From Plasmodiophora brassicae (taxonomy: Eukaryota): 64,000 nt of DNA. The stretch is from the NCBI GenBank assembly GCA_036867785.1, contig CP145422.1, forward strand, positions 124,001 through 188,000, written 5' to 3'. The notes below the pieces were generated by a model. The model was given only the letters and a program-made list of their open reading frames with translations. It did not search any database and had not been told where the DNA came from. Positions 18,044 through 56,698 of this stretch are shown one piece after another. The translations under genes and the position numbers were made by a program. The first letter of the stretch is position 1. Each line of letters begins with the position of its first letter.

Positions 18044-18752
18044 CGTTGCTTGCCTGTCCCTGGCACTGCCTGCAAGCTCTAGGCGGCTCTCGGCGCGCTA
18101 ATGTTACACATGCCCTAGCCGGTGCTCAGCGTGTTAGAGGGCCTGGGCGCCTGTGCATCAGACGACGACTTGCACCTGTGCTGAAGGTGCAGGGAGTTCA
18201 CCCATACGGGTCGGGCACGTCGGCAGGCGTCCAGCAGGACGCGCTGTGCTCGTCGTGGGTCGTGCAGCTGGTCTACGGCGACGTCGGCGCTGGCGCAGGT
18301 AGACGCGCCATGGCGTTGACGACCCGCGACGTGCGATGTCGAACACAGCGACATGTACCTGTTGTTGCAGTCTTGCAGACAGGCCCAGTTCAGCGGACGC
18401 TCACCACAGGGCTCGCACAGATCAGATGCGGCGCCTCTCCGACGTCAGGTGTCGCCGCCGGACCATGTACTGCCGTTGCCGGCGCATCGTGCCCAAGACC
18501 CTGACTGGAAACGCGGAAGCAATGAAGCGCGCGGATTAGCCATGGTTGATCATACAGGGCGCAGGTCTGCTGGAGAACGAGACGCCAGGCGGTGTTATCT
18601 ATGACTTGCAGGCAGGCTACATTCTTGGCGATACAGAAGAACGGTGGCACATGTGCCAACGCACACTGCAAGCTGCCTCTGATTTGTCCGATGGGGTAAC
18701 AAGGTGGAGATGCTCTGCGCGCACTTTCCAGCGACTGATTCTAATTTCAGAG

Positions 18753-20316
18753 ATGGCCGAATACGACGTGGACTGTGACAGCGAGGACAGCTGGGGTTCG
18801 TGCCTATTTGACGCCGACGACGTGATCGAGATCGACGACGATTTTTTCCAGCAATATGACGTCTCAGCCGACGTGCCCGATACGGAGGAGACCCCTGCCA
18901 TCGATATTCGACCTGATCGACCGTCCGTGTCCGACGTCGCCGATCCGAGGTCGGCCGAGTTCCTCACTGTCCACGATATCTGCCGTTCCGTGTTCGAATT
19001 CCTCGACCTTCGTTCGCTTATGCCCTGTCGATACGTCAGCAAGAAGTTTGGGGCGCACGCCAGGCACGCGCTCCTGCACCGATTCGTGCGTTACGCGAAG
19101 CGCACGCGCGAATCGCCGATCGGGGTCGCCGTCCGATCCGATAATCCGTTCATCATACGCTGCATGTTGAACGACCCGAGAATGCAGGAGTGGATCAATG
19201 CCGATGTGCGCATCGGGCCGGTCGACACCGGCACGCCGCTGATGCTCTGCGCCATGTTGGAGAACGCGCGAATGATGCGCGCCCTGCTCACCCAATCCGC
19301 CGTCGACGTCAATGCCATCAACGAGCATGGACAATCTGCCCTCTACCTAGCAGCGCTCTACTCCCTCATGCACGTCCAATGCGTCGACCTGCTCCTGGCC
19401 GACCCTCGCACCGACATCAACCTGCGCGTTGGCCCTAAACGCGAACCGATCCTGTCGTTCGCCATCGAACACAACCGCAACGATTTCGTCGACAAGTTCC
19501 TCCAGCACCCCCGGGTTCAACTGTGCGGTCTCGGCACGGACGACCACCCGACCGCATTCCACCTGGCGCGTTACCCGGAAACCTTGTCGCTCCTCCTCCG
19601 GAACATCACTGTTCCGATGCTCAGCATTGCCGATACGTCCGGGTCCACGCCTTTGCACTGCCTGCTGAAGGCAAAGGGCGCGAAGCTGCGTCACCTCTTT
19701 GACGTCGAACGCCGTGTTCTCGTGTTGATCCGGGACCAGGTCCCCGACGATGTCCTTCATCGAATCGATGCGCGGCGCTCGCTATTCGCTGATTTCGTCG
19801 CGTACTGTCGACCTGGACCTCTCCTCGACTACCTCCTGCTGTGCGGGCGTATCTCGCTGGACCTGCAAGACACAACGCTGGCCGCCATCGTCAACAACGA
19901 CATGAGCTGGAACCGGATCCTATCGCATGCTGCCATCGAGCAGCAGCTGCTATCGAATCCGTACCTGGTGCAAGTGTGCCTGGCGCGTGCAATCCAGGCC
20001 TGGTACAATTGCGATCGTGTCCGATTCGTCTGTGACCGATTCCGACCCGACCTGAATGCATTCCTGCCGACCGCGGCGATCGATGTCAGGCACAGGGTGC
20101 ATGGACCTGTTACGTCCTTCATGCTGGCGGCATGCGTCTTCGACCCGGGCGCGTTACACGTTCTCGTCCATCGGCGCGAGCACCAACTTCACCATCCGCA
20201 ACGTTAACGGATTCATGTCTGTGCACATGGTCCCTAACCATGACTTGCATCGCACACAACGCCAATATCTGTGGTGTATGGTCACCCCCGAGTCGCTCGT
20301 TGAAGTCGGGTGGTAG
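18753..20316 (+). pseudogene. F-box + ankyrin-repeat gene, copy A, frameshifted near the 3' end (stop at 20207 instead of 20316)
   Basis: F-box-like DICRSVFEFLDLRSLMPCRYVSK; ankyrins GTPLMLCA, GQSALYLAA, GSTPLHC; +1 nt near 20179 versus copy B; ancestral tail TNFTIRN..EVGW* lies in another frame. Confidence 0.75.
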
Positions 20317-21990: not shown

Positions 21991-22382
21991 GTACTTGTTG
22001 CTGACGACAGGCCCAGTTCAGCGGACGCTCACCACAGGGCTCGCACAGATCAGATGCGGCGCCTCTCAGACGTCATGTGTCGTCGCTGGACCATGTACTG
22101 CCGTTGCCGACGCATCGTTCCCAGACCCTGACTGGAAACGCGGAAGTAATGACGCGCGCGGTCTACCCATATGGTGGATCATACAGGGCGCAGGTCTGCT
22201 GGAGAACGAGACGCCAGGCGGTGCTATCTATGACTTGCAGGCAGGCTACATTCTTGGCGATATTAGAACGGTGGCACATGTGCTAACGCACACTGCAAGC
22301 TGCCTCTGATTTGTCCTATGGGGTAGCCGGGTGGAGATGCTCTAAGTCGCGCACTTTCCAGCGACTGATTCTATTTTCAGAG

Positions 22383-23945
22383 ATGGTCGATGACGGCGTC
22401 GACTGTGACAGCGGGGACAGCTGGGGATCGTGCCTATTCGACGACGATGACGTGATCGAGATCGACGATGAGTTTTTCCAGCAACATGACGACCCAGGCG
22501 ACGTGCCCGATACGGAGGAGACCCCTGCCGTCGATATTCGACCTGATCGACCGTCCGTGTCCGACGTCGCCGATCCGAGGTCGGCCGAGTTCCTCACTGT
22601 CTACGATATCTGCCGTTCCGTGTTCGAATTCCTCGATCTTCGTTCGCTTATGCCCTGTCGATACGTCAGCAAGAACTTCGGGGCGCACGCCAGGCACGCG
22701 CTCCTGGACCGATTCGTGCGTTACGCGAAGCGCACGCGCGAATCGCCGATCGGGGTCGCCGTCCGATCCGATAATCCGTTCATCATACGCTGCATGTTGG
22801 ACGACCCGAGAATGCAGGAGTGGATCAATGCCGATGTGCGCATCGGGCCGGTCGACACCGGCACGCCGCTGATGCTCTGCGCCATGTTGGAGAACGCGCG
22901 AATGATGCGCGCCCTGCTCACCCAATCCGCCGTCGACGTCAACGCCATCAACGAACATGGACAATCGGCCCTCTACCTAGCAGCGCTCTACTCCCACGTG
23001 CACGCCCAATGCGTCGACCTGCTCCTGGCCGACCCTCGCACCGATATCAACCTGCGCGTTGGCCCTAAACGCGAACCGATCCTGTCGTTCGCCATCGAAT
23101 ACAACCGCAACGATCTTGTCGGCAAGCTCCTCCAGCACCCCCGGGTTCAACTATGCGATGTCGGCACGGACGAACACCCGACCGCTTTCCACCTGTCGCG
23201 TGACCCGGAAACCTTGTCCCTCCTCCTCCGGAACATCACTGTTCCGATGCTCAGCATTGCCGATACGTCCGGATCCACGCCTTTGCACTGCCTGCTGAGG
23301 GCAAAGGGCCTGAAGCCGAATCACGTCGCCGAGATCGAACGCCGTGTTCTCGTGTTGATCCGGGACCAGGTCCCCGACGATGTCCTTCATCGAATCGATG
23401 CGCGGCGCTCGCTATTCGCTGATTTCGTCGCGTACTGTCGACCTGGACCTCTCCTCGACTACCTCCTGCTGTGCGGGCGTATATCGCTGGACCTGCAAGG
23501 CGCAACGCTGGCCGACATCGTCAACAATGACAGGTGCTGGGAAAGGATTCTATCGCACGCCGCCATCGAACAGCAGCTGCTATCGAATCCGTACCTGGTG
23601 CAGGTGTGCCTGGCGCATGCAATCCAGGATTGCAAGAATGGCAAACGTGTCCGATTCGTGTGTGACCGATTCCGACCCGACCTGAATGCATTCCTGCCGA
23701 TCGCGGCGATCGATGTCAGGCACAGGGTGCATGGACCTGTTACCTCCGGCATGCTGGCCGCATGCGTGTCCGACCCGGGCGCGTTACGCGTTCTCGTCGA
23801 TCGGCGCGGCATCGACTTCACCATCCGCAACGGTAACGGACTCACGGCTGTGCACATGGTCCCTAACAATGCCTTGCATGACACACATCGCGAATATCTG
23901 AAGCGGATGGTCACCTCCGAGTTACTCGCTGAAGTCGGGTGGTAG
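22383..23945 (+). CDS. F-box + ankyrin-repeat protein, copy B (intact, about 520 aa)
   Basis: Same motifs as copy A plus terminal ankyrin GIDFTIRNGNGLTAVHM; uninterrupted ORF. Confidence 0.85.
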   Translation: MVDDGVDCDSGDSWGSCLFDDDDVIEIDDEFFQQHDDPGDVPDTEETPAVDIRPDRPSVSDVADPRSAEFLTVYDICRSVFEFLDLRSLMPCRYVSKNFGAHARHALLDRFVRYAKRTRESPIGVAVRSDNPFIIRCMLDDPRMQEWINADVRIGPVDTGTPLMLCAMLENARMMRALLTQSAVDVNAINEHGQSALYLAALYSHVHAQCVDLLLADPRTDINLRVGPKREPILSFAIEYNRNDLVGKLLQHPRVQLCDVGTDEHPTAFHLSRDPETLSLLLRNITVPMLSIADTSGSTPLHCLLRAKGLKPNHVAEIERRVLVLIRDQVPDDVLHRIDARRSLFADFVAYCRPGPLLDYLLLCGRISLDLQGATLADIVNNDRCWERILSHAAIEQQLLSNPYLVQVCLAHAIQDCKNGKRVRFVCDRFRPDLNAFLPIAAIDVRHRVHGPVTSGMLAACVSDPGALRVLVDRRGIDFTIRNGNGLTAVHMVPNNALHDTHREYLKRMVTSELLAEVGW

Positions 23946-25170: not shown

Positions 25171-25535
25171 CGCCCACGCCCCCCTCAGCGGACAATGTGC
25201 GCCACCTGGCAGTCAGTGACGATCACCGAACGGCTGTCACACATATAGGCGTCGACTGATACAGGAGGCGGCATTTTCGTCCGTGACTGCAGCTGGGGAA
25301 ACTGCGCCACTGGAACTGCAATCCCGCAGCAATGGGCGCCGGGTCCGTCGTGGCTGCTGCCCGGACAGCGCCGCCTGCACGGGCGACTACCGACTCCTCA
25401 TGCGGGGGAAGCGACCCCGTTCTTCGTCATCGGCGTCGGTTCGCCGGTCCTGGTCGTCGTCAGAACATGGGGGACCGTGACGCCCCCGCCGCACCCGGCT
25501 ATCGACCGCCCCTATTCTTGGATGCGGCTGGCTGG

Positions 25536-27914
25536 ATGCTGATCGGTGCCCGTCGAGCCGCTGGATGGCGGGTCATCAGGCGATCGGCATCCAGCTCTGC
25601 TGTGACGTCGTCGGCGCCGCATGACGTCGACGACGACGCAGCGGGCACCTGGCGTATCGTGCGGCGAAACGCGCAGCTGGACGCGTCGTTCCGCCTGCAG
25701 GAGTTCATGATGTCCCCGACGGTCCCCGGCGCCGTCCGCCTGCTGAAGGAACTGGTGGACGCCGACCCGTACGGCGGCTGGGCCGTATTTCAACGCGTTC
25801 TGACGTCGTCGCGCCGCCTGGCGCCCTGTGTCCCGTTCTTCCAGGCGATGATGTCGTTCTGCCACCGGTGCATACCCGGGAAAGGCCCGCACGTCTTCGA
25901 GGCGGCCAGGTCGCGCGATGTCCCCGGCTGGGAGACCCTGTTCGGCTCGTTCGTCACCCTGTGCCTGGGCACGTCGCCGCCCATGGTCGACGAAGCCTGG
26001 GCGGCGTACCGGTCGTCAGGCATCCGCACCCATGACGCCATCTACAGCATGGCGCACATCAGCCGAGTCGGGCAGCGGCCGCGCGCCGCGCGCCGCCTCG
26101 TGCAGGACGCTCTGGACGGCAAGGTCGCGTTCACCGAGAAGCTCGTCTCGACGTTCGCCGCGTGCTGCATCGACGACGCCGAAGTCGCCGAGCGGCTCCT
26201 CGACGTCACGCTGCGGTCGCGTATCAACAACCAGCCGCTGGTTGCCAACCTCGTCAAGGCGTTGGTCGCGGGCGGCCGGTTCGGGCGCGCCATCCACGCG
26301 ATGCAGCAGGTGGAGGCGGGCGGCGCCCCGCCTTCGGAGCACGCGTACAACCTTGTGGTTGGCGCGTACACGAGGGCGGGGCGCCTGGCGTCGGCGATCG
26401 ACCTCGTCCAGCGGATGCTGGACCGGGCGGTGCCCGTCTGCCTGCCGGTCCTCTGCGCGTTGATCGTCGCCTGCCGTCACGACGCGCCTGCCGTCCGCCG
26501 ATTGCACGACGTCGTCGTTGTGCGTCGCCCGCTGCTGGACGAAGACGTCGTCGTCTGCGCCTTCATATCCGCGTTTGGCCATTGCGGCGACGTCGCATCC
26601 GCCGAGAACGTGTTCCGGTCCTGGACCGGGCGCCCGTCCATCACCGTCTTCAACGCGATCATCGGCGCGTACAACCGCAACAACGCCCTGCTGAAGGCGA
26701 TCGAAACGTTCGACGCCGTGCGACGCGCCGGCCTGCACGTCGGCCCGCCGATCCACGCCAGCATGCTCGCCGTCTTCGCCAAGGCGAACCGGATCCCGCA
26801 AGCGCTGGCCCTGCTGCGCTCGTCGGCGCGCGACGCTGTGGACCGCGACCCGTCCCTGTTCGCGATGCAGGTGGCCGCCTGTGCGCGATGCTCCGACCTG
26901 GCCGCCGTCCACGAATTGCACAGGTACGCGCGCGCCAGCCCGCCGGCGCCGCCTGTCGAGGCGGCCCTGATCGCCGCCTACGCCGCCTGCGGCCAGCTCC
27001 ACGACGCGCTGAACGTGTTCCAGAGCGGGAAGTGGCCGCCAACGCTGGCGACGCTGAACGCCGTCATCGACGCGTACGCCGACCATGGCGTGCTGTCGTC
27101 CGCCATGGGCCTGTTCGCCCGCATGAAACGGGCGCGTCTGCGACCGGACCGTTCCACGTTGCTGTCGCTCCTGAAGGCCTGCAGCAACAGCCGCGACCTG
27201 GAGGCGGCCGTCGCCATCGTCGCCGAGTTCGCGGGCGCCTGGCGGGTCCGTCTGGCGTCGGACCACGTCCGGCACCTCGTCGATCTGTACGGGCGCACCG
27301 GCGACCTGGACACGGCCGAGCGCCTCTGCCGCACCTCGGTGCACGCGCTGTCCGCCCTGCGCGCGTGCCGCCGGCACCGCGACGTGCCTCGTGGCGCCCG
27401 CGTCTTTGCTCGCCTGCAACAGCCAGCTGACGACGTCGCCCACGCCCTGCTGTCCGACCTGTACGCCTCGGTGGGATGCGCCACGAAACGCGCGACGACG
27501 TCGCAAGGGCCGACGACGCTGATGCTTCCCGGGAGCGCGCTGCGTTTCGCGACGAACGATCGGCGGCTGCAGACCGATGGGAACCTTCGGCAACAGCATC
27601 GGAGCATGCTGGCCGACCTGCGGGATCGCGGGTACCAACCCGACGTGTCGGGCGTCGACGGCGACGTCCTGGACGACGCCCTGCAGGCGAGCTGCGTCCA
27701 CAGCGAGAAGATCGCGCTGGCGTACGCGTTGCGCGTCCTGCCACCGGGAGCGCCCGTCTTCGCGTCGAAACCCGACGGCATCTGCCCCGACTGCCACGAC
27801 GTCCTGAAGCGCGTCTCGGCGCTGTACAGGCGCGACGTTGGCGTCCGCGATCGGAACGCGTATCACCGTTTCCGCGATGGGCGCTGCTCCTGCGACGACT
27901 ACTGGTGTATATAG
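25536..27914 (+). CDS. PPR protein with C-terminal DYW cytidine-deaminase domain
   Basis: PPR motifs (AYNLVVGAYTRAG, AFISAFGHCGD, VFNAIIGAY, ALIAAYAACG, LVDLYGRTGD); GYQPD, HSEKIALAY, CPDCH, HRFRDGRCSCDDYW; Arg/Ser-rich presequence-like start (upstream ATG 25332 also in frame). Confidence 0.92.
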   Translation: MLIGARRAAGWRVIRRSASSSAVTSSAPHDVDDDAAGTWRIVRRNAQLDASFRLQEFMMSPTVPGAVRLLKELVDADPYGGWAVFQRVLTSSRRLAPCVPFFQAMMSFCHRCIPGKGPHVFEAARSRDVPGWETLFGSFVTLCLGTSPPMVDEAWAAYRSSGIRTHDAIYSMAHISRVGQRPRAARRLVQDALDGKVAFTEKLVSTFAACCIDDAEVAERLLDVTLRSRINNQPLVANLVKALVAGGRFGRAIHAMQQVEAGGAPPSEHAYNLVVGAYTRAGRLASAIDLVQRMLDRAVPVCLPVLCALIVACRHDAPAVRRLHDVVVVRRPLLDEDVVVCAFISAFGHCGDVASAENVFRSWTGRPSITVFNAIIGAYNRNNALLKAIETFDAVRRAGLHVGPPIHASMLAVFAKANRIPQALALLRSSARDAVDRDPSLFAMQVAACARCSDLAAVHELHRYARASPPAPPVEAALIAAYAACGQLHDALNVFQSGKWPPTLATLNAVIDAYADHGVLSSAMGLFARMKRARLRPDRSTLLSLLKACSNSRDLEAAVAIVAEFAGAWRVRLASDHVRHLVDLYGRTGDLDTAERLCRTSVHALSALRACRRHRDVPRGARVFARLQQPADDVAHALLSDLYASVGCATKRATTSQGPTTLMLPGSALRFATNDRRLQTDGNLRQQHRSMLADLRDRGYQPDVSGVDGDVLDDALQASCVHSEKIALAYALRVLPPGAPVFASKPDGICPDCHDVLKRVSALYRRDVGVRDRNAYHRFRDGRCSCDDYWCI

Positions 27915-40102: not shown

Positions 40103-43100
40103 TTATTCTAGTAGAAGTCTCGCCGCCTCATCCTGGTCGGCAAACGGGTCCTCGAGCGGGACCACCGGAGGCGATGCCGCTGGATGCTGCTCCTGCGGCT
40201 GCTGCTGCTGCTGGTCGTGATGGCCCACCGCGAATCCATCCCAGGAGGGCATTGCCGCAGGGGCCGGCACCACCGGGTCGTCTTTCCCGTCGGTGTCGCT
40301 GTCGCTCGTAGCGTTGCCCGAATCCCTCGTCGACGACGACATGCCGGAGCCGACCCCGGACCCAACGACGACGTCGTCGGAGGCGTTGGCGAGGACCGCC
40401 ATCGTGACCTGCCCCAGGGCGACGCCGCCGGCGTCGTCCGTGCCGACCTGCTTGGGCGACGACTCGATCGTGGCGCCCGACTGCCGCACGAGCCGTTTGG
40501 CGAACAGCGACCCGCGCCGGATGGCGGTCGGGGGGACGCCCCCGGGCAGGGCGTCCTGGCGGTCGTCGCCGTCCGCCTCGTCGTTCTGCTCGTCGACCTC
40601 GGCGACGAGGTTGTCGGCCTCGGCGCCCAGGCCGCTGCTCGTGCGGCGGTGCCGGACGGCGCCGCTGCCGACGCGGCGGTGCTGGCCGATGGCGGCCGTG
40701 AAGCGCTTGGCGGCCGACGCCGCCTTCATCAGCCCGTTCACCGAGTTGATCGCCGTGCTCGACGGCGTGTCGCGCGTGAACTCGGACGACGGGAACGGGT
40801 CCGTCGCCAGCCGCACGAAGTAGGTGACGTCCGACGGCAGCAGCGCGATCGTCCTGGCGAACGCCAGCAGCGCCTGCTGCCGGCCGACCGCCCGCTTGAC
40901 CTGGTTGCTGCAGTGCAGCAGGTTCGGCGGGCACGACAGCGCCAGGCGCGCCGCCGAGTCCACCTGCACACGCGCACGCGTCTCAGACGTCGTCGTCACG
41001 CCCGTCTCCGTCTCTCTCTCACCGTCCCGCCGAACACGGAATGGCGCAGGCGCATGCCCGGCAGGATCGCCGACAGCAGGCCGCCGACGTCCATGCCGCC
41101 GGCCACGTCGAGGCAGCGCTCGGGCAGGTCGCCCCTGGACGCCTGCAGGTCGCCCGCCCGTTTGATCATCCTCAGCGCCGCCTGCCGCATCGTCACCAGC
41201 TGGCACACACACACACCGCACACACCGCACACAGACCTGGATCGTGCTCGTCAGGCGCATGCGCCGGTCGGTGTCCACGTCGGCGTCCGGCTTCGTGGCG
41301 CCGCCCGCGTCGTCGTCGTCGAACTCGAACTCCTCCTGCGCGTGCCGGAGCCCGCACACGAAGACGAACGACCCGCCGGCACTGGTTCGCAGGGCGTCAC
41401 CGGTGAGGGGCGGGCGGTTGCACCGGCCGCGCGCGCACACGTACCTCAGGACGTGGATGCACGAGTACTCGTGGCAGATGGAGACCCAGTCCTCGAACAG
41501 GAGCGAGATGATGCTGATGGCCTCGTGCGGCGCCGCCCGGAACCGGTCGATCAGGGCGGGCAGGCCGACCAGCTCGACCTGCGCCACCGACACGTTGTTG
41601 CAGAGCCAGCCGCGCGGCTCGAACGACGTGTCCAGCGCGCTGGCGATCGGCCGGGGCACCAGCCTGACGCGGAGAGAAGTTAGGCTGGCGCGACACGCGT
41701 CGGACGCGCGACCCACCTGGGAAGGATGCTCTTCACCGTCTGCCTGTGCTCGTTGCCGAGCCACTCGAGGAAGAAGTGTTGGCGGACGGTGCGCTCGCGA
41801 GCGTAACTGGCGACGACGCTACAGGAGACGGCGGCGAGGTACACGCCGAGGTACAGGGCGGTCAGCGGCCAGGCGAACCGCAGGACGACCAGGTAGTCGA
41901 GGACGAAGACGACCGCGAACGACAGCCCTGGACGGCGACACACACACACACACAACGTCAGCGTGGCGGCGCAAGGCGGCGACACAACAGCGGGAGGGCC
42001 CCCACCTAGGACGGCGCATTGCACGAACCTCAGCCCGTCCACGTCGAGCGTCGCCGTGCAATGCGCGACGGCCAGCAGCGTCGTGACGAGGTTGGGCCGC
42101 GCGTACCGGTTCCGGCTGGTCAGCAGGGCAATGTACCCGAACGCCTATACGACCGTCAAGATCGGGCGCGCCCCACCCGGCCCTTCCTACGTTAATGGCC
42201 TGCAGGGCGATCTGGAACACGTAGACGCCGGCCGCGAACCGGCCCTGCTCCAGGAACCGGGTCAGGCGGGCGCTCCACACCGGCGACTGAATGAGGGCGC
42301 TCAGGCCGCCGCCCATCACCTGCACAGCACGCGCGGTCAGTCGACCTCGATGAGGGCGCGCGCGTGCCAGGGCGCCCGACCAGGTACAGGAACAGCAGCG
42401 TGAACCCGGCGGCGTCGAACCCGAAGAACAGGTTCGTCAGCAGCTCGATGACGCCCAGCGCCAGCGCCTTGTCGTACCCGGCCGCCAGGCGCTTCACCAG
42501 GCCGTTCCCGACGTACCTGCCAAAGTCGTCCTCCAGCGTGGCCCTTTACGCGGGCGGTCAACGCGGGCACACACACACGTACGACGACACGGGCACGCAC
42601 CATGGCATCGTCTTGAACGCGCTCGACTCCACGATCTGGTTGACGTCGTACCGCAGCGTCCATCTGTGACACCGCTGCCCTGGTCAGCATTGCGACAGCG
42701 CGGGCGACGAACGCACGTCTGCCCCCGACCGGTGCAACGGGACGTCGATCGCCTGCAGGCTGGCCTGTCGGGTCGGGGTCAGCGAAGGGTGCACGTCAAT
42801 CGACAATGGGAGCGCCACCATACGTCTTGTTCCTCGAGGCGGACGTGGACGCCGAGGTGCTTGACGTACCCGTCCGTGTCGATGGCGCGCTCGATGTGGT
42901 CGAACTCGGCCTTGACGGGTCCGACCAGGCGGTAGACGTGCCGGTGCCCGTCGGTGAACGCCAATCGCAGCGACGCGCGCTTCGCGTCCTCGTCGTTGTT
43001 CCCGTCCACTGTGTGGCAGGGGCGGCCATCAGCGAGCGATCAGTGAACCGCCAGGCGCCCCCGGGGGGCGTACCGTGCGCCAGGCGGTACGGGTCGTTCG

Positions 43101-46100
43101 TGTTCATCAGCGGCAACGACGGGTTCTGCGCGTGGTGCAGGCGGTCGAGCGACTTGAGGTAGTTGCCAAAGTCGAGCGCCTGCGCCACCGAGTTGGCCAG
43201 GCCCGCCTCGATCATGAAGGCGACGGCGTCCCGCCCCAGGAAGCAGTTGTCGAAGGCGGCCCCCTTGTACAGGCGCGTCTCGAAGCGCAGGTTGTTCTGC
43301 AGGCCCAGGGCGAGCGCCTGCGCGTCGACGCGCTCGGCGCTGTTCAGGCGGAACAGGGCGCGCCGGCCGTCGCGGAACGGGCGGCGCGGGTCGATCGCGT
43401 CCTGCAGGAAGCTCCTGGCCGTCAGGTAGGACGCGATCTCGACCGCCTCATCGCGGCTCCCGGCGAGCTTGTGCGCCAGGATCAGGTCGACGCAGGCGGC
43501 GCCGGTGAACGTCTTCGGGTAGGCGCGGCACCAGCGCTGGTGCGTCGCGACCGGCAGCGCCCGGCGGATCGTGCGCACGACCCGCTTCAGGTCGACGTCG
43601 GGCGCGATCCGGAACCGGTACCACTCGCTGGCGCTGTCCACGAAGTCGCGGTCGGCGTCGACGGCCCCGACGATCACGTTGTGCATGCGCAGGGCGCTCC
43701 CGAGCCGCACCGCATCGAACCTGTGCGACACGCGCGTCACGTGCGTTCGTCGACGAAGGGCGGGCGCGCGACGCACCTGCTGACGCAGGCCTCGTTGCTG
43801 ACCAGCAGGTCGACGACGTCGCTGCCGGTGAAGCATCGGCGAACGGTGCGCAGGCCCAGGCAGCGGCGCCGGTCGGCGATGGTCAGCCGCGAGCGCAGCA
43901 TGGCGACGACGGCCTCGCTGAACGGCTCCGGTTCCGGTTCGGTCGGGCCCGCCGCCGCGTCGGTCGTCGTCGTCGTCGCGCCCGACCCGCTGTCATGCGA
44001 CGACAGGCGCGTCAGCGACGGCGCTGGCTCCCGGTTCCTGGACGACGCGCGCTGCTCCGACTCGGACCCGCCCGCCTTCTTCGGGAACGACACGGGCCGG
44101 GCGACGTACGCGTGCCGGACGAGCTGGTAGGTCGTCGCCGAGATGAAGATCTGGCCGGCGCCCGCGATCGTCTGCAGGGAGCGGGCGCCGCGCATCGCGT
44201 CCCCGAAGACGGACGTGTAGATCCTCGGGGGGATCGCGTCCGTGTCGGCGACGTCCCACTCGGGCAGGGCCGCCCGGGCCGCCCACCCGCTGTGCACGCC
44301 CATCGCCAGCGTCAGCATGACGCCGAACAGGGCGTGCGAGACGCGCGGGTCGTTCAGCTCGGCGAGTTGCACGGCGACGCGCGCCATCTCCACCGCCTGC
44401 GATGCGGTCAGCAGCCGAGGCAGCAGCAGCAGCATCACACGCGCCCCTGACCGAGTCGGACGGCGATTCGTTGTGCCCAGCGGACGCGACGAGCAGGGCG
44501 CCCTGGCCGGCGCCCATCACCGAGCAGTGCGCCTCGATGCGGGCGACGTTGCGCTTCAGGACCGTCTCGATGATGTCGTGGACCTTGCTGAGCAGGGCGA
44601 TCGCCTGCGACGGCGTCCGGTGCTGGATCAGCCGGGGCAGGTTGTCGATGCCAACGACGAGGACGGTGACGTTCGGCGACACGATCGTTGGGGCGCGCGA
44701 CAGGACGCGCGCGACGTACTCGCGGAACTCACTGATCATGCGAGCGGAGAGCAGCGCCGCCCGCTTCTCCGACACGGTCGTCATCGTGTGGCCCGCGTTC
44801 GGCACCATGTCCTGGACGACGGACGTCGACAGGTGGAACGCCAGGCGGTACCGGCGCTCCTGCAGGAACAGCAGGCGCTGGCGGCGCTCCCACGCGTAGC
44901 AGGTGGCGCCGCCAGCGACGGCGACGATCGCGTACATCAGGTCGAACAGGACGGCCTGGACGGGCGTGACCGCGAAGTACAGGTCGGACCAGGCCATGCC
45001 GATGAACGCGGCGTTCATCGTGACGGCGTCGAACGCGACCAGGGCGACGCCGTCGACGAAGGCCAGCGCGAACTGCGTCAGGACCAGGAACGGGTACAGG
45101 AGCGCCGGCAGCAGGCCGACGAACGCCGGCAGGGTCAGGTCGCTCTGACGCCGGGCGGCGTCGTCGCCGATCGCCGCCGCCGTCGGCCACATCGTCAGCG
45201 TCTTGATGACGGACAGGCCCACGAGGAGCAGGGCGACGTTCAGGCGCGTGGGCCCGCCCGACCGGAACCTGGACAGAGGGGCACAGGCAGGCCACGTCAG
45301 CAGCCAGCAGAGCGGCCCGCTCGAGCGCGCGCGCGCACCGGTCCAGCAGGGTGACGATGCCGCCGATCCAGCCGACGACGAGCAGGGCGCGGGGCGTGGC
45401 GAGCGGCGCCCCCTGCAGCATCTCGAACGGGCACTCGGCGAGCAGGGCGACGGCTAGCAGGAACAGCTTGACGCGGACGACGGCGAACAGGCGTCGCTCG
45501 CTGATGCACCGGAACGACGCCTCGCGGTCGTCGCAGTCGGCCCGGGCCCGGGACGCCATCAGCGGGTCGGCGCCGTCGCCGACCGCCGCCTGGAACCGCA
45601 GGGTCGCCCTGGCCAGCCGCATCGTGTAGACGGTCAGCGGCTGGGTGGACGGCGCCGCGAAGTTCTTCACGGACGCGCGCCTCGTCGACGCCTCGTTCGT
45701 CGACGCCGACGGCGACTGCATCATGAAGAAGGTGGCGATGGAGGAGCGGCGCCCGGTCGAGTCGGTCGTCGTCGCGTTTGACATCGTGCTCGTCATCCGC
45801 TGCACGATCGACATGCGACGGGCGGGCGCGTCCCCCGCGGCCGCCTGCGTTGCCGCGCCCGCTAGGCCCTTCAGCGCCGTCGTCGTCGTCGTCGTCGTCG
45901 ACGTCCGGCGGCCGGCCAGCAGGTCGCGACGGGACTGGGCCTGCACCGACAGCCGCCGAACCGAGATGTTGTCCGCCGTCCGCTCCACCGCCTCCGTGAT
46001 CGTCGTCGTCGAGCTCGACAGCGACGTGTTCCGGTGGTGCTTCGGCTCGGGCGACGCGGTCGGCGGCGGCGGCGCCTGCCCCGTGATCCCGTGCCAGACG

Positions 46101-49100
46101 CGGTCGTTCAGCAGGGTGAACGCGCCGGCGATCCGGTCGGCGATGCAGGCGCTGACGGCCAGGCGCGTCTCCGCCTGCGGGATCAGCCGCATGCGCAACG
46201 TGGCGTAGACGTCGGCGAACGTCACCGACGGGTCGATGGCCTTCGCCAGCACCAGCGACAGGCGCAGGCGCCGGGCGCAGTCCTCCAGCGACTTCACCTG
46301 CCAGGCGACGTCGTCAGCGGTGCGGGCGCGGGGCCGGGCGCCGCCCCCCGAACCTTCTCGATGAACGACGGCGCCAGGTGGTAGCGCAGGCGCGCGAACG
46401 TCCCGTCGATGACGAGCGTGGCGGCGACGACGAGCGCGGCGATGGCGGCGAAGTACAGTGTGTTGCGGCCCTCGATGGCGTCGCCGTAGAACCGCACGTC
46501 GAGCGACCCGGCGACGGTCAGCCACAGCGTCATGATCGTGATGGAGACGCCGGTGATGAACAGGTAGTTGAGCGAGAACGTCCCCGACTGCTGCATGACC
46601 TTGAAGTTGGCCGTGCAGGTCGCGGCGACGTACACGAGGATGCCGGTGGCGTACAGGCTGCCGACCGTGTTGTTGTCCAGGGCGGACGTCTGCAGCAGCG
46701 CGGGCGTCTTGGTGAACCCCATCGACTCCAGCGCGTTGATCGACGCGAAGCACAGGACGAACACGACCATGCCGTGCAGGATGCCGTTCGCGACCGCGCG
46801 CAGCGTGTGCCCGATGCCGAACTCGCTGCGCTTCGTGCCCTGTTTCGCCACGTTAGCCTGGGGCATGGACGATCCCGACACACGTACGCCATAGAAGTAG
46901 ACGCGCGCGTCCGCGTCGCACGTGTCGTCCTGGACGTCGCGGTCACGGGCGCCCAGCACCAGCAGCGTCAGCGTCGTCATGAACAGGTTGAACACGTCGA
47001 CGAGGACCTCGGGCATGTAGAAGACGCCGCTGAACCCGTCGAACAGGCCGTGGACGAACATGCAGATCGGGACCAGCATGACCTTGTAGGTGCAGATGCG
47101 GGCGACGAGGCACAGCCGATGGTAACTCCAGTGGCCGTGCACGAGCACGAGCCGCGGCAGCATGTGGAACCGGGGGATCGTGTAGTCCGCCATCAGCACC
47201 GCCTCGTTCGCGTTCGTCAGCGACACGTTGCCGACGGCGACGCCGACGTGCGCCTCCCGCATCATGGCGATGTCGTTCGCCGACCTGGCGACGCCCAGCG
47301 TGATCGCCTGTGGCGCTCCCCGGTTAGAACGTCAGCGGGCCAGCGCGCGTCAATGCGCACCTGATCGGCGACGATCCATCGCAGGCAGTAGACGACGCGA
47401 GCGAGGTGGGCGCGCAGGCGGGCGATGTGCAGGCGGGCGCGGGCGCGTACGCCGACGCCAGGCTGCTGCAGGGCGTCGTGGACGTCGCGCAGGGTCTGCT
47501 CGGCGATGTCGACCCGCAGGTGGCCGCCGCGCGATTTCACGAACCGGATCATGCGGCGCTTCTGGGCGGGCGAGCACGACCCGACAATGATGCATTCGCT
47601 GCGGTCGCACAAGGCGAACATGATCGGCGACATGACGCTGTCGTTCAGGACGAGGTCCATGGCCGTGCTGTCCATGATCACGGCGGTCGGCTCCGCCTTG
47701 GGCTGGTTCAGGTACCTGGCCGCGTAGTCGTTCAGCTCGACGCGCAGCCGGTCCGACACCCGCTTCATCTTCTTCAGGTACGCCTTGTCGGACAGCTCGG
47801 TGGCGGCCCGGTCCGCCATGGCCGCCGCGTGGATCTCGTCGAACGTCTTCTCCGGGGCCGGGTTCCTGGGGTCCACGTCGGGGTCGTCGGGCACCGGGTC
47901 GCCGACGCGCCTCTCGTTGCGCAACGTGGCGCTGACCTTCCCCGGGGCCGCGTCCAGGTCGCTGAACAGCGTCAGCTCGTGCATCGACGGGCGCACCAGC
48001 CCGGTGGCGTACGCGGCCGACGCGGCCATCTCGGTCGAGTCGCAGCTGGACACCCAGATCTTGATCCCGGACGACTGCAGCCGGGTCAGGGCGGGCGGCA
48101 CCGCCGCCGGGATGACCTCCTCGAAGGCGACCAGGCCGACGAACCTCAGGTTGCACTCGATCGTGTCGGCCAGGTACTGCAGTGTGGATAGGACGGGGCT
48201 GGCGTCGACCTGCAGGAGGCGCTCGCGCGTGATGGGGTCCTCGTCGGCCCACTGCGGGTGCTTCTGGTCCAGGTTGCGCGCCTTGAGGTACAACGGGTAC
48301 CAGACGTTGTAGAAGAAGCAGAGCGGGACCTTGCGTTTGGCGAAGACCATGGTGCTGAACCCCTGCTGGCGGTACCGCTCGATGGCACCGGTGACGTCGT
48401 ACGGCTGGCGGTGGACGTCCACGCATCGGTCGATCATGTCCCGCGCCCAGCCTTTGCAGTACACCCAGACGTCCTCGTGGCCGTACCTGACAACGACGGA
48501 CGACCGCCCGCGCGACGATATCGAACTGATGGCCAGGACCTCGATTTCGGCGGACGTCTTCGCGATACGATGCCCCTGGTTGATCGGGACGATCGCCAGG
48601 TGGATGACGGGGCCTTTGCGCGCCTTGAACTCGTACCCGAACGACTTGGCCGATTCGACCATGGCGACCTCGTACGGCGACGACGACCGGTACGAGAACT
48701 CCTTGTTGTAGAAGTGCTCGTCGCGCTTGATCTTCGCCTCCAGGTCGAGCTTGTCGCGCGGCAGCTTGATCCTCGACGTCGCCGAATGGCAGATCGCCAT
48801 CAGCGTCAGCATGAATTTCGCGTTCGCCGAACGGGCGTCGTCCCCATGCCAAACGTCGTCCACAATGTCGGCGAACTGCTGGTTCTCTGCGACGACGCGT
48901 GAGCGAGCGCACGACGGCACACCCGCCCAGGACGTGCAAATGACGTACCTCTGACGAACGTGTGCTTGCCGGCGTATTCGAGGCCGTTGACGTTGATGCG
49001 GGCCACCTGGACGTTGCCGGACGTCATCAGGCCGTTCTTCTCGCAGAAGATGTGCTCGACCTGGCCGAGGTCGGCGCTGACGTTCGAGTTGATCATGCTG

Positions 49101-51438
49101 GCCTTGTTGGTGAGCTTGTGGGCAATCTCGCGCATCTTCGCGTCGAGCGTCACCGAGACGCCCTGCGACGTGGCGACCAGTTCGAGGATGACCCAGACGG
49201 AGACCTCCAGGACGCCGTACATGAAGAACCACCAGCTATATGGGATCAGCAGCTGACTGGTTTCGCTCGCGCCCAGATCCATGTGCCAGAAATTCACAAA
49301 GTTGACGGGCTGCGACAGGCCCAGGAACTCGATCCACGACGGCAAGTTGATGAAGAACTGGCCTTGCGAGAACAGCGTGTTGCCAACGACGCTGAACGCG
49401 GCGAAGAACGAGGACAGGCCCAGAAGGAACACGGCGACGCGATCCAGGGCTTTCATCAGGTGCGAACGTTTGACGGGGCACCACCCGTTGATCCAGTTCT
49501 GGGCGACCTTCGTTTCGTGGCCGGCGTACACGATGACGCCAATCGCCGACGCCGTGTACGCCAGCTTCGTCCCACGAAGCACCAGGTTCATCATCGACAG
49601 TTTCTCCACGTGCGAATACGGCTTCCCCGGGTCTCGCCCCAACTCCTCCTTCAGCACCCGCTTCACCTGCCCCGGGACGTTCATTCGATGTGCACCAGTA
49701 CAGATTCCGCCTTCCACAGAACCTTTGGCAGCTGCTCTAACGGCATGCCTTTGCAGCGTTCCGTTTCTTCCCGTTGCATCTGACCGGCCGCTTCTCGGAC
49801 GTCGACCCCGATCGACCCTGTGAAGGTCTCCAGATCCGGACCAGGTCTATCGCATCTCAGCGCGCCTGTTGGGCACGTGAGGTGAACAGCACGGGCAACG
49901 ACTTTCGACTTGGACCGACCTTTCAGACGGCGCAGGCAGGTCCCCGTTTTGAAGATCGACGTGATGTCCACCGTGCGCTTCAGTTTGTAATTGCAATCCC
50001 TAGAAATCCAGCGGCGGCCGAGTGAGTACGTTGCCACAACCAGGAATGGGTCGGTACCCGTCAATGTTGGAAGTGTCGACGAAACATTCGCTATCGTGCT
50101 GGCCTTCGAGAGGTTCGGTTGCGAGCAGGATCATATCGGCCGGGAAGCTCTCGCCATCGAGGACTTTGACAATGTCGCCAACGACCATGTCGCCCCAGGC
50201 CATCAGGACGAAGCTGCTCATCGTGGACACCGCCCGCAACTGATTCGGGTCCAGGACCAGCGAGCGCTTCATGTTCTCTTGTCCGTCTCCCCAGGCACGC
50301 TTCAGGTCTTCCGACAGCTCCTTGACCATGCGTACGCCGACCCAGATCAGAAACTGGTATTCCAGCGACAGGAACGACGACTGGTAGGACACGGGATTGT
50401 ACATCTGCAGAGGACGTCACGGGCGATTCCTCAGGGGATAGCCCTGCCGACCGATGCTTACGTTCACCAAGATCAGGACGATGAAGATGATGTTGATGGG
50501 TAGCAGCATCTGTTCTAGGAGACACAACGGGACGAACGTCGCCACGCTATACCTCGCCGTCTGCATGGAGTTCCGCGCGAACCTGTCACGAACGTAAATC
50601 GTACTGGCCCTGGATAGATGAGCGTATTGTGGGTACCCCTGGGCGCCGTTCCGCAGCCTGTCATCAAGCATGACGGTTCTCACGGCTGCCCCGTTCGCTT
50701 GCAGGATCGTGTCGTCGAATTTCGGCTTCTTCCTAGCGTTCAGCACCATTTTCTATCCCGGCGAGTCAAGAAACGGTGAACGGACGAGATGAACGCCGGC
50801 GCCCCCCGACCTTCTCGAACGCGATCATTCCCTTGGCATGGCTCTCCTCCAGATCAAGGTAGCTGAAGCTGCCGTCGGACTCATGGCCGCTCTTCCTATC
50901 CAGAGAGATCAGAGAAATGGGCATTCACGACCACCGGATCACGTCCTACGAGTGTTCGGTAAGCGTGTCGTGCTCCACCGAATCATGGCCGCCACCTCCA
51001 TGACGCGTTGACTGATGATCGCCACCGCCATGCTGCTGGGGGTGGCGGTTTCCACCACCGTGACGAGGCGATTGCTGGTTATGCTGTTCGACGTGTTACA
51101 CGTCGCTGTTCGGAACCGTCTTCCCGTACGTACCTGCGCCTCAGAGTCACGCCCGCCTTGACCTACGCATCCGTATCAGCAACCGGGTTATGGGTGATCT
51201 TGGCCAAGATCGGACCATGGGCCTTGTAAACGCTGCGGGCATCGGCAGTGGATCGCAATTGGTCGCTTCGGCTCTGGAAGGCGTGGGCGTTGCTGTTGCC
51301 CGTGGTAGATGCTGTGTCGGTGAGCCGTGACTTGATGCCCTTCGTCCGATGCTTGAACTGTTGCGCGGCAAGTTGAGCGATCGATTCGCTTTTCTTCTTC
51401 GCCGCCTTGGCGGTCACGTTCGCGCTTGCATTGGACAT
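40103..51438 (-). CDS. Giant P4-ATPase-like / class III nucleotidyl cyclase-like / triple-DEP fusion protein with degenerate catalytic motifs (start uncertain)
   Basis: P4-ATPase motifs FARNSMQTARYS, VGDIVKV..FPADMILL, LVLRGTKL, YAGHETK, LGQVEHIFCEKNG, SSSPYEVAMV, CSPAQK, HGHWSYHR (about 46340-50600); TM blocks; cyclase-like domains about 44125-44690 and 40890-41670; three DEP repeats about 43080-43910; many short introns. Confidence 0.8.
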
Positions 51439-51788
51439 TAGAGACGAACGAGCCCGCCCTTAGCCGGATCCGGGTGGGCCACGACGGCCTAGGGCAGCGT
51501 GTTCCCGGCCAGAGTGATGTCGTCGTTGTTGAACAACGGGACTGTGACTGGTGGCATTTCTGGCGAGTCTGATGAAGTCCATTATTCCATCAGACCCGGT
51601 CACCCGAGGCGCTGACCGGCGCCTGAACCCGCTGAACCAGTCCAAGGATCCGAGAAGACTCACCCCATTCCGCTAACGCACTCGCATTGCTCGGCTGTGC
51701 CTGACAGAGGGAGAAGACGAAAACCGACGCTCGATGATGACACGTTGCAGCAAACATGAGGCGATTCGCACGCAAATTGGATTGGCCC

Positions 51789-52815
51789 TTTATCCCGACG
51801 GCATGGGATCGCTGGAGACGGCCGTGGACTTCCAGAACCTCTCGAGAACGTAGTACAGTATGACGAGGAGCAGGTCGCAGACGACAACCATGAGGTATGT
51901 GGACGCAGCCAGCGCCTCAAACGGCGGACATCGAAAGCCTAATCGCAACACCGGTCAACTCGAAACCGGTGCAGAAGAGATTTGTCGTCCCAAAGCCCCG
52001 TACACAGTGATATCGTGGACAATACGCCGCCGAGAATGTCGAATGCTAGAAACGTTATCGACAGACCAATAACGCGACGAGTTTCTGCAGACGTCGGGAA
52101 ATAAGAGCAGCCGTGGCAGGGTGCGTGATCATGCCACCTCCTTACGGTAGATTTCCCAGTACTGGGGCACGAAGCCGATGAAGATCAGCGCGGTCGATGT
52201 ATACCCTGGCACATCGACTGGCCAGGTGACGCCCGACCGCCTTGTCGACTGAGGTTCACCGTCAGCAGCAGCGCTTGCGACGTGCGGTCCGACCCCACCA
52301 ACATCGATAAAGTAGGTGGCCAGAGTGACAACCGCTGCGGACGCCAAGACAGCGGCGACCCCGACCAGCGCCGATAAACGCGCTCTGCGCTTGTCGGCAG
52401 GGAGGGCATCAGTCCGCCCGTAATACAGCGCCTGCAGGATGCAGACGAGGGAGAACACGGAGAACAGCACTGGCTGCGTTTTCAGCGGCCACGCCAGGCC
52501 GATGAGGATGGCGAATACGAAATAGACAAGACCGGATAGGTACTGTCGTGTGCACAACAACGTCGGATGGCCAGACCCTGTTATGCATCGTGGACTACAT
52601 TACCCAGAGTGTCAACATGCCTTGCGAAACGCCTACACGCGTCCGAACATCGATTATGAGGGCAATCCCGTATCCGCACGCGACCTGCCTTGCGCGGTCT
52701 TGTTCCTGTACGTCTCCAGGGCCTGCGGCACTAGCTGGAACGACCAGAACACGGTGCCCACCAGACCGACGACCGTCTCCAGGACCGGGAAGGACGGCGG
52801 CAGGTCGCACGACAT
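51789..52815 (-). CDS. PQ-loop repeat membrane protein
   Basis: FWSFQLVPQALETYRNK and IGFVPQYWEIYRKE; multiple TM segments; introns. Confidence 0.75.
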
Positions 52816-55075: not shown

Positions 55076-55160
55076 GGTGAACTGCACCCCCACCCTGGTG
55101 AACTGCACCCCCCACCCTAGTGAACTGCACCCCACCCTAGTGAACTGCACCCCCTACCCA
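55076..55160. repeat. 21/22-bp minisatellite RGTGAACTGCACCCCCACCCT, 4 copies
   Basis: Direct read; lies between the divergent Tubby and PPR genes. Confidence 0.9.
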
Positions 55161-55240
55161 CAGCGCCGCGTGGCCCGTGGGCGTCTTCACGGAGGGCACT
55201 GCGCGCGACAATGCGCCACGGCGACAAGCGCCATGCCGTC

Positions 55241-56698
55241 ATGGCGCGACTGCTCGTCGTTGCGTCGCGACCGTTCCACGCGACGACACGACCATCGTCG
55301 ATGGTGGACGATTTCCTGCGCAGGCCCTCGATCGGGCTGGCCGCCCGGATCCTTCTGCTCCGGGATGTCAGGCCGGATGACGGATGGACGGTGTTCTGTC
55401 GGGTGATCGATTGCCGGCTGGGCCCACGTGCGCCGTTCTTCCAGCGCATGATGGAATTCTGTAAACGGGCGCTACCCAGCAAGGCGCCCGACGTAATGCG
55501 CGCCGCCGTCTGTAATGGCATTCCTGTGAGAAGGGACGAAACGCTGTTCATGACGTTCCTGGCGGCGTGCAAACTCGCGAACCCGCCCGCTATGAAAGAG
55601 GCCATCGACCTGTACCGACAGTGCGGCCCTCGATCGCGTAACGTCATCAACAACCTCGCCGTGATGTGCCGCGCGTCCAAGCACCCGGAATCGGTCATGT
55701 TCCTTTTGTCCGACGCCATTGACAACAACGTTCAGGTCGACGCTCCCCTATTCTCCATGTTCGCGGCCGCTTGCGCTGAAGAAGAACGGCTCAGTTCGTC
55801 GGCCGGGGACGCCGCCGAACGCCTTCTCGGTCTGGTTCTTTCCAAGGGTGTTGCTATGCCCAACATCAGGGCACACGATCTCGCCAGTCTCATGCAAGCG
55901 CTGCTGCGCCAGGATCGGTTCGACGCCGCCATCAAGGCGTTCCAACTGACGAACGCGCTGGATCGCCCGCCGTCGAAGCAGATGTGCACGGTTCTCGTCA
56001 CCGAGTTAACCAGAGGCGAATGCGTTCCAGAGGCCATGGCCGTCGCTGATCTCATGTCTGGACGAGGCGTCCCTTTCACCGAGGGTGCATTGACATCGTT
56101 GGTTGTCGTTTGTGGCAGTCATGGCGCCTTCGCTTCACTCCAGAAGCTGCACGAATACGCAAGCGGGGGCCATGCGTTGTCGAAGAACGTTGGTGTCATC
56201 AATGCGTTCATCGCCGCCTATGGCAGATGTTGCCATCCGAACGAGGCGTACAAGGTGTTCCGGTCCGTTGCCATGCCAGACCCATCCACGTATGAAGCCA
56301 TGATTACGGCGTTCGTCAGGAACGGGATGGCCGACAGAGCTGACGAGGTCCTGGACGAATTCAAGGCTACAACTGGCGCGGTGACGAGGGAGGCGCTCGG
56401 CAACATAATGTCAGCGTTTGCCGAAGCGGGTCTCGTTGCCAGCGCCATGCGGCTGTTTGTCGAGATGGTGGAGCGTGACCTGCGTGCGGGCACTGCCGAG
56501 CTGGTCTGCCTTGTATCTGCCTGCGGCCGTAATCGCGACCTGGACACGCTCCACAAACTGCGACAGTTCGCCAAGCAGAACGGCCTGTTATCGGGCGAAC
56601 CGGTCACCTCTGCTTTCGCCTCCGGGTACCACCAGTGCCATGGCTCCACACCATCACGCGACGCGCCCGCGTTCGTTCGCGATCGGGAAGTCCCGTGA
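55241..56698 (+). CDS. PPR protein without DYW domain, paralog of 25536-27914
   Basis: Presequence-like MARLLVVASRPFHATTR; PPRs INAFIAAYGRC, YEAMITAFVRNG, GNIMSAFAEAG; shared N-terminal block PFFQRMMEFC. Confidence 0.85.
   Translation: MARLLVVASRPFHATTRPSSMVDDFLRRPSIGLAARILLLRDVRPDDGWTVFCRVIDCRLGPRAPFFQRMMEFCKRALPSKAPDVMRAAVCNGIPVRRDETLFMTFLAACKLANPPAMKEAIDLYRQCGPRSRNVINNLAVMCRASKHPESVMFLLSDAIDNNVQVDAPLFSMFAAACAEEERLSSSAGDAAERLLGLVLSKGVAMPNIRAHDLASLMQALLRQDRFDAAIKAFQLTNALDRPPSKQMCTVLVTELTRGECVPEAMAVADLMSGRGVPFTEGALTSLVVVCGSHGAFASLQKLHEYASGGHALSKNVGVINAFIAAYGRCCHPNEAYKVFRSVAMPDPSTYEAMITAFVRNGMADRADEVLDEFKATTGAVTREALGNIMSAFAEAGLVASAMRLFVEMVERDLRAGTAELVCLVSACGRNRDLDTLHKLRQFAKQNGLLSGEPVTSAFASGYHQCHGSTPSRDAPAFVRDREVP

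Follow-up and report, generated by a model that had tools for sequence, protein, structure and literature searches.

In apicomplexan parasites, egress, invasion and motility are under the control of fusions of a P4-ATPase flippase with a guanylyl cyclase (P4GC), proteins whose origin is debated. A survey by Wiser (2026; PMC13466520) reports P4GC in all alveolates, and also in oomycetes and bicosoecids, and describes a cyclase module that is highly conserved in all P4GC lineages, a disordered and variable connector named c1b, and a decay of flippase motifs that is tolerated in some active lineages. According to its main text, neither P4GC nor a class IIIa cyclase was detected in rhizarians, an assembly of Plasmodiophora brassicae being among the genomes searched by TBLASTN; because none was found in rhizarians, P. 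brassicae included, the fusion was placed after the rhizarian divergence (PMC13466520). Here, we describe a minus-strand gene in a 64,000-nucleotide window of a genome that an earlier sequence-only reading had taken to be rhizarian, and that the NCBI record names as P. brassicae (assembly GCA_036867785.1, contig CP145422.1, forward-strand positions 124,001 to 188,000; coordinates below are those of the window). The gene, with a coding region at 40103..50828 composed of 25 exons and 3108 codons plus stop, encodes a single polytopic protein, 3108 residues long or longer, that is laid out like a P4GC.

From the N-terminus, the protein comprises a flippase-like module, a disordered linker, a transmembrane (TM) block, a first cyclase homology domain (CHD1), three DEP domains, a second TM block, a second cyclase homology domain (CHD2) and a tail. 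The three DEP domains take the place of the normally disordered c1b connector, which links the first unit of TM block and CHD to the second. Judged from the translation and its domain matches, the P4GC architecture is present, with the P4 and cyclase modules in one polypeptide, a flippase of the P4A subtype, and two TM blocks with two CHDs. On the other hand, all of the catalytic signatures that we checked are replaced, bar one Arg in CHD2, while the glycines of the cyclase fold are kept. We consider it fairly probable that the gene encodes an expressed, conserved pseudoenzyme of P4GC architecture, serving as a scaffold or sensor.

The transcript was examined in contigs from public sequencing runs. 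Of the 24 runs listed, 20 carry this DNA, each at no less than half of the sampled words, and contigs were taken from four of them, each belonging to a different study. None of the 20 is on record as RNA; the contigs proved spliced all the same. In all four, short CT..AC segments, corresponding to GT..AG introns of the minus strand, are missing, revealing that the contigs are RNA-derived. Single spliced contigs extend from about 40.08–40.11 kb far into the flippase region in runs X12 (9098 nt), X20 (9068 nt) and X19 (7510 nt). The 15 contig joints listed, out of 32, comprise 11 in the fusion gene, all canonical, three in the upstream gene and one non-canonical joint in a repeat. The other introns were derived from the contig coordinates, by enumerating GT..AG pairs under the length imposed by the contig. 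Between 43719 and 44450, two introns account for 111 nt together, and from 46296 to 47359, 907 nt of contig correspond to 1064 nt of genome in three runs, yielding introns of 53, 56 and 48 nt. Within the RNA-covered part, all 18 introns are GT..AG, measure 46–78 nt and mostly contain a CTGAC or CTAAC-like branch site; the GT..AG ends hold for all 24 modelled introns of the gene. The spliced frame is free of stops over 2832 codons from 49663 to 40106, and reaches 3108 codons once the annotated 5′ exons are added. These exons, with six introns that are all GT..AG, were taken over from the reference protein P0004 (PBRA_006904), and 299 of the first 300 residues of our model are identical to it. 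The stop codon lies at 40103–40105 and the annotated start ATG at 50828.

Two candidate joints were discarded. A single 104-nt intron at 46296–46399 has no GT..AG solution, and the 56- and 48-nt introns fit instead. A joint from 43981 to 45877 (CC..CG, with 19–21 letters on one side), together with loose ends at 45877–45903, falls in a Thr-codon repeat and was taken as an artefact.

The public annotation describes a shorter product. The flippase exon is 100% identical to the NCBI entry "hypothetical protein PBRA_006904 [Plasmodiophora brassicae]" (P0004), which has 1374 residues and only the PF16212 and PF16209 matches. This protein terminates by reading into a 56-nt intron (46298..46353; GT..AG, with a branch-point-like CTGAC), the removal of which puts the flippase and the linker in frame. 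Since PBRA_006904 ends inside an unspliced intron, the public record shows a plain flippase only. As for a downstream product, searches at 504–2000 and 698–2000 residues, other lengths not being excluded, returned only a genomic reading-frame call (P0003) or nothing.

If the annotation were right, two or more genes would lie here and the RNA contigs would fuse neighbouring transcripts. Apart from the stop of PBRA_006904 at 1374 residues, this explanation could draw on run X7, in which the contigs are interrupted at both introns on either side of the linker exon, and on the base composition: the G+C content is 58–72% around the locus, so that long stop-free frames occur on both strands, one chance frame reaching 707 codons. 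Moreover, two points weaken the case for a single gene. The junction intron 46298–46353 was derived from contig coordinates and is not among the 15 of 32 joints listed, and contigs cannot prove a single-molecule transcript, the one-gene model being based on spliced contigs and one frame. However, the annotated stop sits in a GT..AG intron that is absent from the contigs of three runs, the frame goes on for about 1780 codons past the junction, and 13 of the 16 listed strain differences downstream of the junction are synonymous. We therefore regard separate genes as highly improbable. The sequence-only reading had proposed one spliced minus-strand locus with this domain order and had singled out about 46300–45500, the flippase-cyclase junction, as the place where transcripts might end; the spliced contigs of three of the four runs pass straight through it, and the single frame and the domain matches bear the proposal out.

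Two splicing details of the gene deserve mention. A 48-nt in-frame intron at 46840–46887 (minus) is spliced in three runs and retained in an X7 contig and in P0004, suggesting possible alternative splicing that would add 16 residues to a flippase loop; these residues are absent from the orthologue fragment P0005, which lends further support to the intron. The Logan-derived P0003, which is 99% identical, translates in frame through the 70-nt intron 45269–45338, where its contig differs from the window by two bases; this is a strain indel within the intron, with no frameshift in the gene.

Runs X19 and X20 represent other strains. For the fusion gene, 26 of 63 strain differences were listed, of which 21 are synonymous and 5 non-synonymous, while a random change in this frame would be synonymous in 25.5% of cases. 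All five listed differences in the region of the first TM block and CHD1 and all three in the segment after DEP3 are synonymous, while two of five in the C-terminal tail are non-synonymous. The gene is thus expressed, coding and under purifying selection. The loss of the catalytic motifs throughout could also be the mark of a decaying pseudogene that is still transcribed. Against this stand, besides the strain differences, the 3108 codons without a stop or frameshift, the intact ends of all of the modelled introns, and orthologue fragments (42–58% identity) that keep the degenerate motif and the insert described below. Decay is accordingly a very unlikely account.

The flippase-like module spans residues 1–1325 (46354..50828) and was delineated by Pfam, by phmmer against the Protein Data Bank (PDB) and by hydropathy. 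Among the minus-strand frames, Pfam detected PF16209 (PhoLip_ATPase_N; E 5.1e-9, 36.2 bits, cutoff 29) and PF16212 (PhoLip_ATPase_C; E 4.4e-36, 125.3 bits, cutoff 28.3), with a weak E1-E2_ATPase match, and a hydropathy scan placed eight hydrophobic segments over the threshold. The family fold and domain order of a P4-ATPase are thus present. In the PDB, the module is closer to the P4A proteins ATP8A1 (E 2.1e-67) and Drs2 (3.1e-63) than to the P4B proteins Neo1 (3.7e-32) and ATP9A (2.8e-25), and we assign it to subtype P4A by this similarity ranking, not by a tree.

As compared to ATP8A1, the residues required for phosphoenzyme chemistry are replaced. The phosphorylation-site motif DKTGTLT reads EKNGLMT (within CEKNGLMT, 49022..49045), in which Glu takes the place of the phosphorylated Asp. 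DGET has become DGDC, with Asp in place of Glu, PISL in TM4 has become EVSV, with Glu in place of Pro, and TGDK has become SCDS. The equivalent of GDGxND, at 47269..47298 (LGVARSANDI), reads VARSAND. None of the four residues or motifs expected of a working P4-ATPase, namely the phosphorylatable Asp, the DGET Glu, the TM4 Pro and GDGxND, is therefore in place, as read from the alignment. In addition, an Arg-rich insert of about 52 residues (47361–47515, minus) separates the P-domain helix from the GDGxND position; it has a non-coding look by composition, yet it is present in the RNA contigs and conserved in P0005.

A HMMER search with the 508-residue flippase exon against 1.84 billion representatives gave 1340 matches at E ≤0.001. 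The top three, with identities of 51%, 58% and 47%, are orthologues from other organisms, represented by fragments of 651, 355 and 347 residues, respectively (two UniParc entries and one Logan contig). P0005, the fragment at 51% identity, lacks the GDGxND aspartates and contains the 52-residue insert. The catalytic degeneracy is old, as this orthologue fragment is degenerate likewise.

The flippase module is followed by a Ser/Thr-rich low-complexity linker (residues 1326–1590, 45503..46297), seen in the translation and without a Pfam match. The first TM block (44899..45490, containing the intron 45269–45338) and the second (41809..42482) each show 5–6 hydrophobic segments by hydropathy, and the whole protein has about 20. 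Just before CHD2, the translation contains a helical segment with a Leu-Pro pair (41600..41769), which resembles, by eye, the cyclase transducer element as defined in the survey (PMC13466520). A low-complexity C-terminal tail, again without a Pfam match, occupies 40106..40885.

CHD1 covers residues 1841–2018 (44094..44682, with the intron 44397–44451) and CHD2 residues 2670–2848 (40886..41599, with three introns and an acidic insert). Both were delineated with a profile and hhalign, and CHD1 also with the PDB matches of its C-terminal half. To obtain the profile, a consensus motif of class III cyclases was back-translated and the resulting pattern was used to scan genome contigs, which gave at least 120 loci; 78 bacterial frames with enough flank were aligned into a profile of 197 nodes. 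PF00211 was found in all six source segments sampled (E 1.8e-15 to 2.5e-49). In the spliced protein, CHD1 scored 35.4 bits and CHD2 33.4 bits, against 2.6 bits for the best of 501 decoys (500 block-shuffled copies and the reversed sequence), and hhalign gave probabilities of 97.5% (E 7e-12) and 97.2% (E 3.7e-11), respectively. These profile scores indicate that CHD1 and CHD2 are real class III cyclase homologues, only when read spliced, in line with the two cyclase-like domains of the sequence-only reading. In addition, the four best PDB matches of the C-terminal half of CHD1 are nucleotide cyclases (E 0.022–0.18). An Atlas language-model look-up of the exon bearing the first TM block and the N-terminal half of CHD1 returned ten best clusters that are all PF00211 (0.94–0.92), some of its look-alike clusters having AC_N plus Guanylate_cyc, as in membrane adenylyl cyclases; we use this as a lead only.

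Several searches argue against this assignment. On single exons, Pfam gave PF00211 for the C-terminal half of CHD1 below the threshold (E 0.088, 12.8 bits, cutoff 21.9) and no match for the N-terminal half of CHD1 or the largest CHD2 exon, and neither cyclase domain was recovered from the raw minus-strand frames. None of the four PDB matches of the N-terminal half of CHD1 is a cyclase. Moreover, a direct hhalign comparison of CHD1 with CHD2 was not significant (probability 0.9%).

To compare the active sites, we considered those columns in which 80% or more of the 78 reference domains agree. Both domains keep the four conserved Gly columns and the Phe of Phe-Gly. The first metal-binding Asp, which is D in 71 of the 78 bacterial domains, is G in CHD1 and E in CHD2; the second, D in 73 of 78, is Q and G, respectively. 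At the Asn position, invariant in the reference set because it was fixed by the search pattern, CHD1 has R and CHD2 has D, and at the Arg position, R in 74 of 78, CHD1 has S while CHD2 retains R. The two metal-binding Asp of a class III cyclase are thus missing from both domains. In the Toxoplasma protein, both Asp come from domain 2, and the Asn and Arg from domain 1 (PMC6592433). The corresponding site here has E, G, R and S, and its mirror site G, Q, D and R; thus, neither of the two pseudo-symmetric active sites is complete, and the P4GC catalytic set of two metal Asp in domain 2 with Asn and Arg in domain 1 is lacking. Given that the chemistry residues are replaced in both modules, we infer that the protein supports neither lipid flipping via a phosphoenzyme nor the synthesis of cGMP or cAMP. 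The working flippase-cyclase implied by the sequence-only reading is not supported, as the phosphorylated Asp, the DGET Glu, the TM4 Pro, the GDGxND Asp and both metal Asp are replaced and the Asn/Arg pair is incomplete.

The protein could still be a functional P4GC, that is, a working guanylate or adenylate cyclase with unusual catalytic residues, the output of which is regulated by the DEP domains. It shares the architecture of P4GC, purifying selection acts on the gene, and flippase-motif loss does not preclude activity in some P4GC lineages (PMC13466520). At the active sites, an acidic Glu stands at metal position 1 of CHD2, which also retains the transition-state Arg, and in CHD1 an Asp two residues past metal position 1 could substitute if the strand were shifted. 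The case for inactivity is also weakened by its basis, namely the residues read from profile alignments of domains that have diverged strongly. However, the second metal Asp is lost in both CHDs, with no acidic residue near. Three to four of the four positions of the P4GC-type site are replaced, by the rule taken from the Toxoplasma protein (PMC6592433), and the survey calls the cyclase module highly conserved across P4GC lineages (PMC13466520). A working cyclase is therefore unlikely, although less so than decay or separate genes.

The DEP triplet lies between CHD1 and the second TM block. DEP1 (43600..43877) contains the intron 43721–43776, DEP2 (43339..43551) is the best Pfam stretch, and DEP3 (43007..43290) is the second, its last residues crossing the intron 43009–43073. 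The frame 43992–42799, with DEP2 and DEP3, matched PF00610 at 88.2 bits (cutoff 32.7). For the DEP exon, Pfam gave E 5.5e-25 over three stretches, the C-terminal half of DEP1 being counted among them, and the intron-split N-terminal half of DEP1 alone gave E 1.7e-5 (25.1 bits). The peptides CFTGSDVVDLL, TFTGAACVDLI and CFLGRDAVAFM, quoted in the sequence-only reading for its three DEP domains, are found in the spliced translation together with the strand endings. The closest solved relatives are DEPTOR (8.9e-6, for DEP2), pleckstrin-2 (9.5e-4) and the DEP region of P-Rex1 (0.003, for DEP3). About 115 residues, encoded in four small exons of which the largest has no Pfam match, connect DEP3 to the second TM block (42477..43006).

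DEP domains bind acidic lipids or receptors. The triplet may dock the protein to an acidic membrane lipid or to a signalling partner, and the flippase-like and cyclase-like bodies would provide shape and partner surfaces. The link to lipid or GPCR sensing suggested by the sequence-only reading would be speculative. The most likely role would thus be that of a non-catalytic membrane scaffold or sensor.

Regarding the origin of the architecture, vertical descent from P4GC is a tentative possibility: the fusion would pre-date the split of Rhizaria from stramenopiles and alveolates, and the protein would later have been doubly inactivated and turned into a scaffold coupled to lipids or receptors through the DEP triplet. 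A separate fusion in plasmodiophorids, or a transfer from an oomycete or alveolate, without vertical descent from a P4GC of the ancestor of stramenopiles, alveolates and Rhizaria (SAR), is a comparably tentative alternative. Among the best 150 of the 1340 flippase matches, none exceeds 2572 residues, and the three orthologue fragments are followed by ordinary P4-ATPases, with identities of about 30%; the cyclase domain PF00211 was found in none of the 11 matches scanned, which include all of those above 1600 residues. The flippase module accordingly shows no sign of a special closeness to the flippase modules of P4GC. This is a weak negative, because the gene calls in the library are often fragments, which makes length a weak filter. 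The survey, in addition, reports P4GC in no other rhizarian genome (PMC13466520). In contrast, P4GC are the only proteins known to combine the three parts in this order with a flippase of the P4A type, and Rhizaria are sister to the lineages having P4GC. For the cyclase-DEP half, protein searches and a metagenome scan yielded no orthologue; the scan found three loci at 20–21% identity, which are not orthologues.

To be counted in the survey, a fusion had to show the two conserved domains within a single annotated protein or be matched by TBLASTN (PMC13466520). The survey would miss this locus, because the annotation is truncated at the unspliced intron and the cyclase is spread over many small exons and is too divergent exon by exon. 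The locus thus illustrates how a flippase-cyclase fusion escapes detection: truncated annotation, many small exons and divergent cyclase domains. If it is homologous to P4GC, either the fusion already existed in the SAR ancestor or the gene was transferred into this parasite of plant roots. The sequence-only reading knew of no description of this architecture, and we likewise found none: no paper in the literature that we searched joins DEP domains with a flippase-cyclase fusion or treats the P. brassicae protein or its locus tags, and the word DEP is absent from the main text of the survey, supplements apart (PMC13466520). As far as we found, no earlier example is known of this architecture with the catalytic residues lost from both enzyme halves and the gene still expressed and constrained, and this is also the first flippase-cyclase architecture with folded DEP domains in the connector. 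It offers a natural experiment on the role of the flippase-cyclase body apart from catalysis.

The coding region may extend at its 5′ end to 51438 (50829..51438). Removal of three GT..AG introns would bring an ATG at 51438 into frame, with 51163–51215 and 50896–50978, or alternatives, as candidates. The intron 51163–51215 agrees with a contig piece that has its lower edge at 51213, and depth typical of the gene reaches about 51650. The enumeration gave 18 models with a relaxed branch-point filter and none with a strict one, and a start at 51438 rather than at the annotated 50828 is likely but unproven. The bounds of the sequence-only reading, 40103..51438, thus coincide with the stop codon at one end and with a plausible start at the other.

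Upstream lies another minus-strand gene (51650–52600), with three spliced introns (51937/52003, 52084/52146 and 52248/52303). Its depth exceeds that of the fusion gene more than tenfold in run X7, and its largest frame has no Pfam match. A contig of 1855 nt in run X12 connects this gene with the 5′ region of the fusion gene, suggesting overlapping untranslated regions or read-through. Elsewhere in the window, on the plus strand, a single frame of 875 codons (25287–27911) encodes PPR repeats followed, at the C-terminus, by a DYW nucleic-acid deaminase domain (PF14432, E 1.4e-21); PPR-DYW RNA-editing factors are best known from land plants. A second PPR frame is found at 55124–56695. Of the plus-strand frames 14719–16572, 18540–20204 and 22287–23942, one encodes a chitin synthase (PF03142, E 9e-22), and the other two are adjoining ankyrin-repeat frames, which are of similar size and may be tandem paralogues.

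As compared with the known systems, the protein is closest in layout to P4GC, such as Plasmodium GC-alpha/beta and Toxoplasma ATPaseP-GC, with which it shares a single polypeptide, a P4A flippase, a long variable linker and two units of TM block and CHD; like some P4GC lineages, it also shows decay of the flippase motifs (PMC13466520). It differs from them in its three folded DEP domains at the place of the disordered c1b connector, in the replacement of the cyclase catalytic residues in both domains, the P4GC cyclase module being described as highly conserved, and in its host, a member of Rhizaria, from which the survey reports none (PMC13466520). Mammalian-type membrane adenylyl cyclases (class IIIa, 2 × 6TM with C1 and C2) likewise have two TM blocks, with a helical Leu-Pro segment and then a CHD behind each. 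They keep one complete active site, whereas none is complete here, and they have neither a flippase module nor DEP domains. The flippase-like module has its best solved relatives in the P4A flippases ATP8A1, Drs2p, ATP8B1 and ATP11C (E 2.1e-67 to 2.6e-56), with alignments that cover the A, P and N domains as well as the C-terminal TM region, but departs from canonical members in the phosphorylated Asp, the DGET Glu, the TM4 Pro, TGDK and GDGxND, and in the 52-residue insert before the GDGxND position. Finally, several DEP domains in tandem also occur in DEPTOR, P-Rex1 and pleckstrin; however, these are soluble regulators, whereas the DEP triplet of P. brassicae forms a loop of a polytopic membrane protein.

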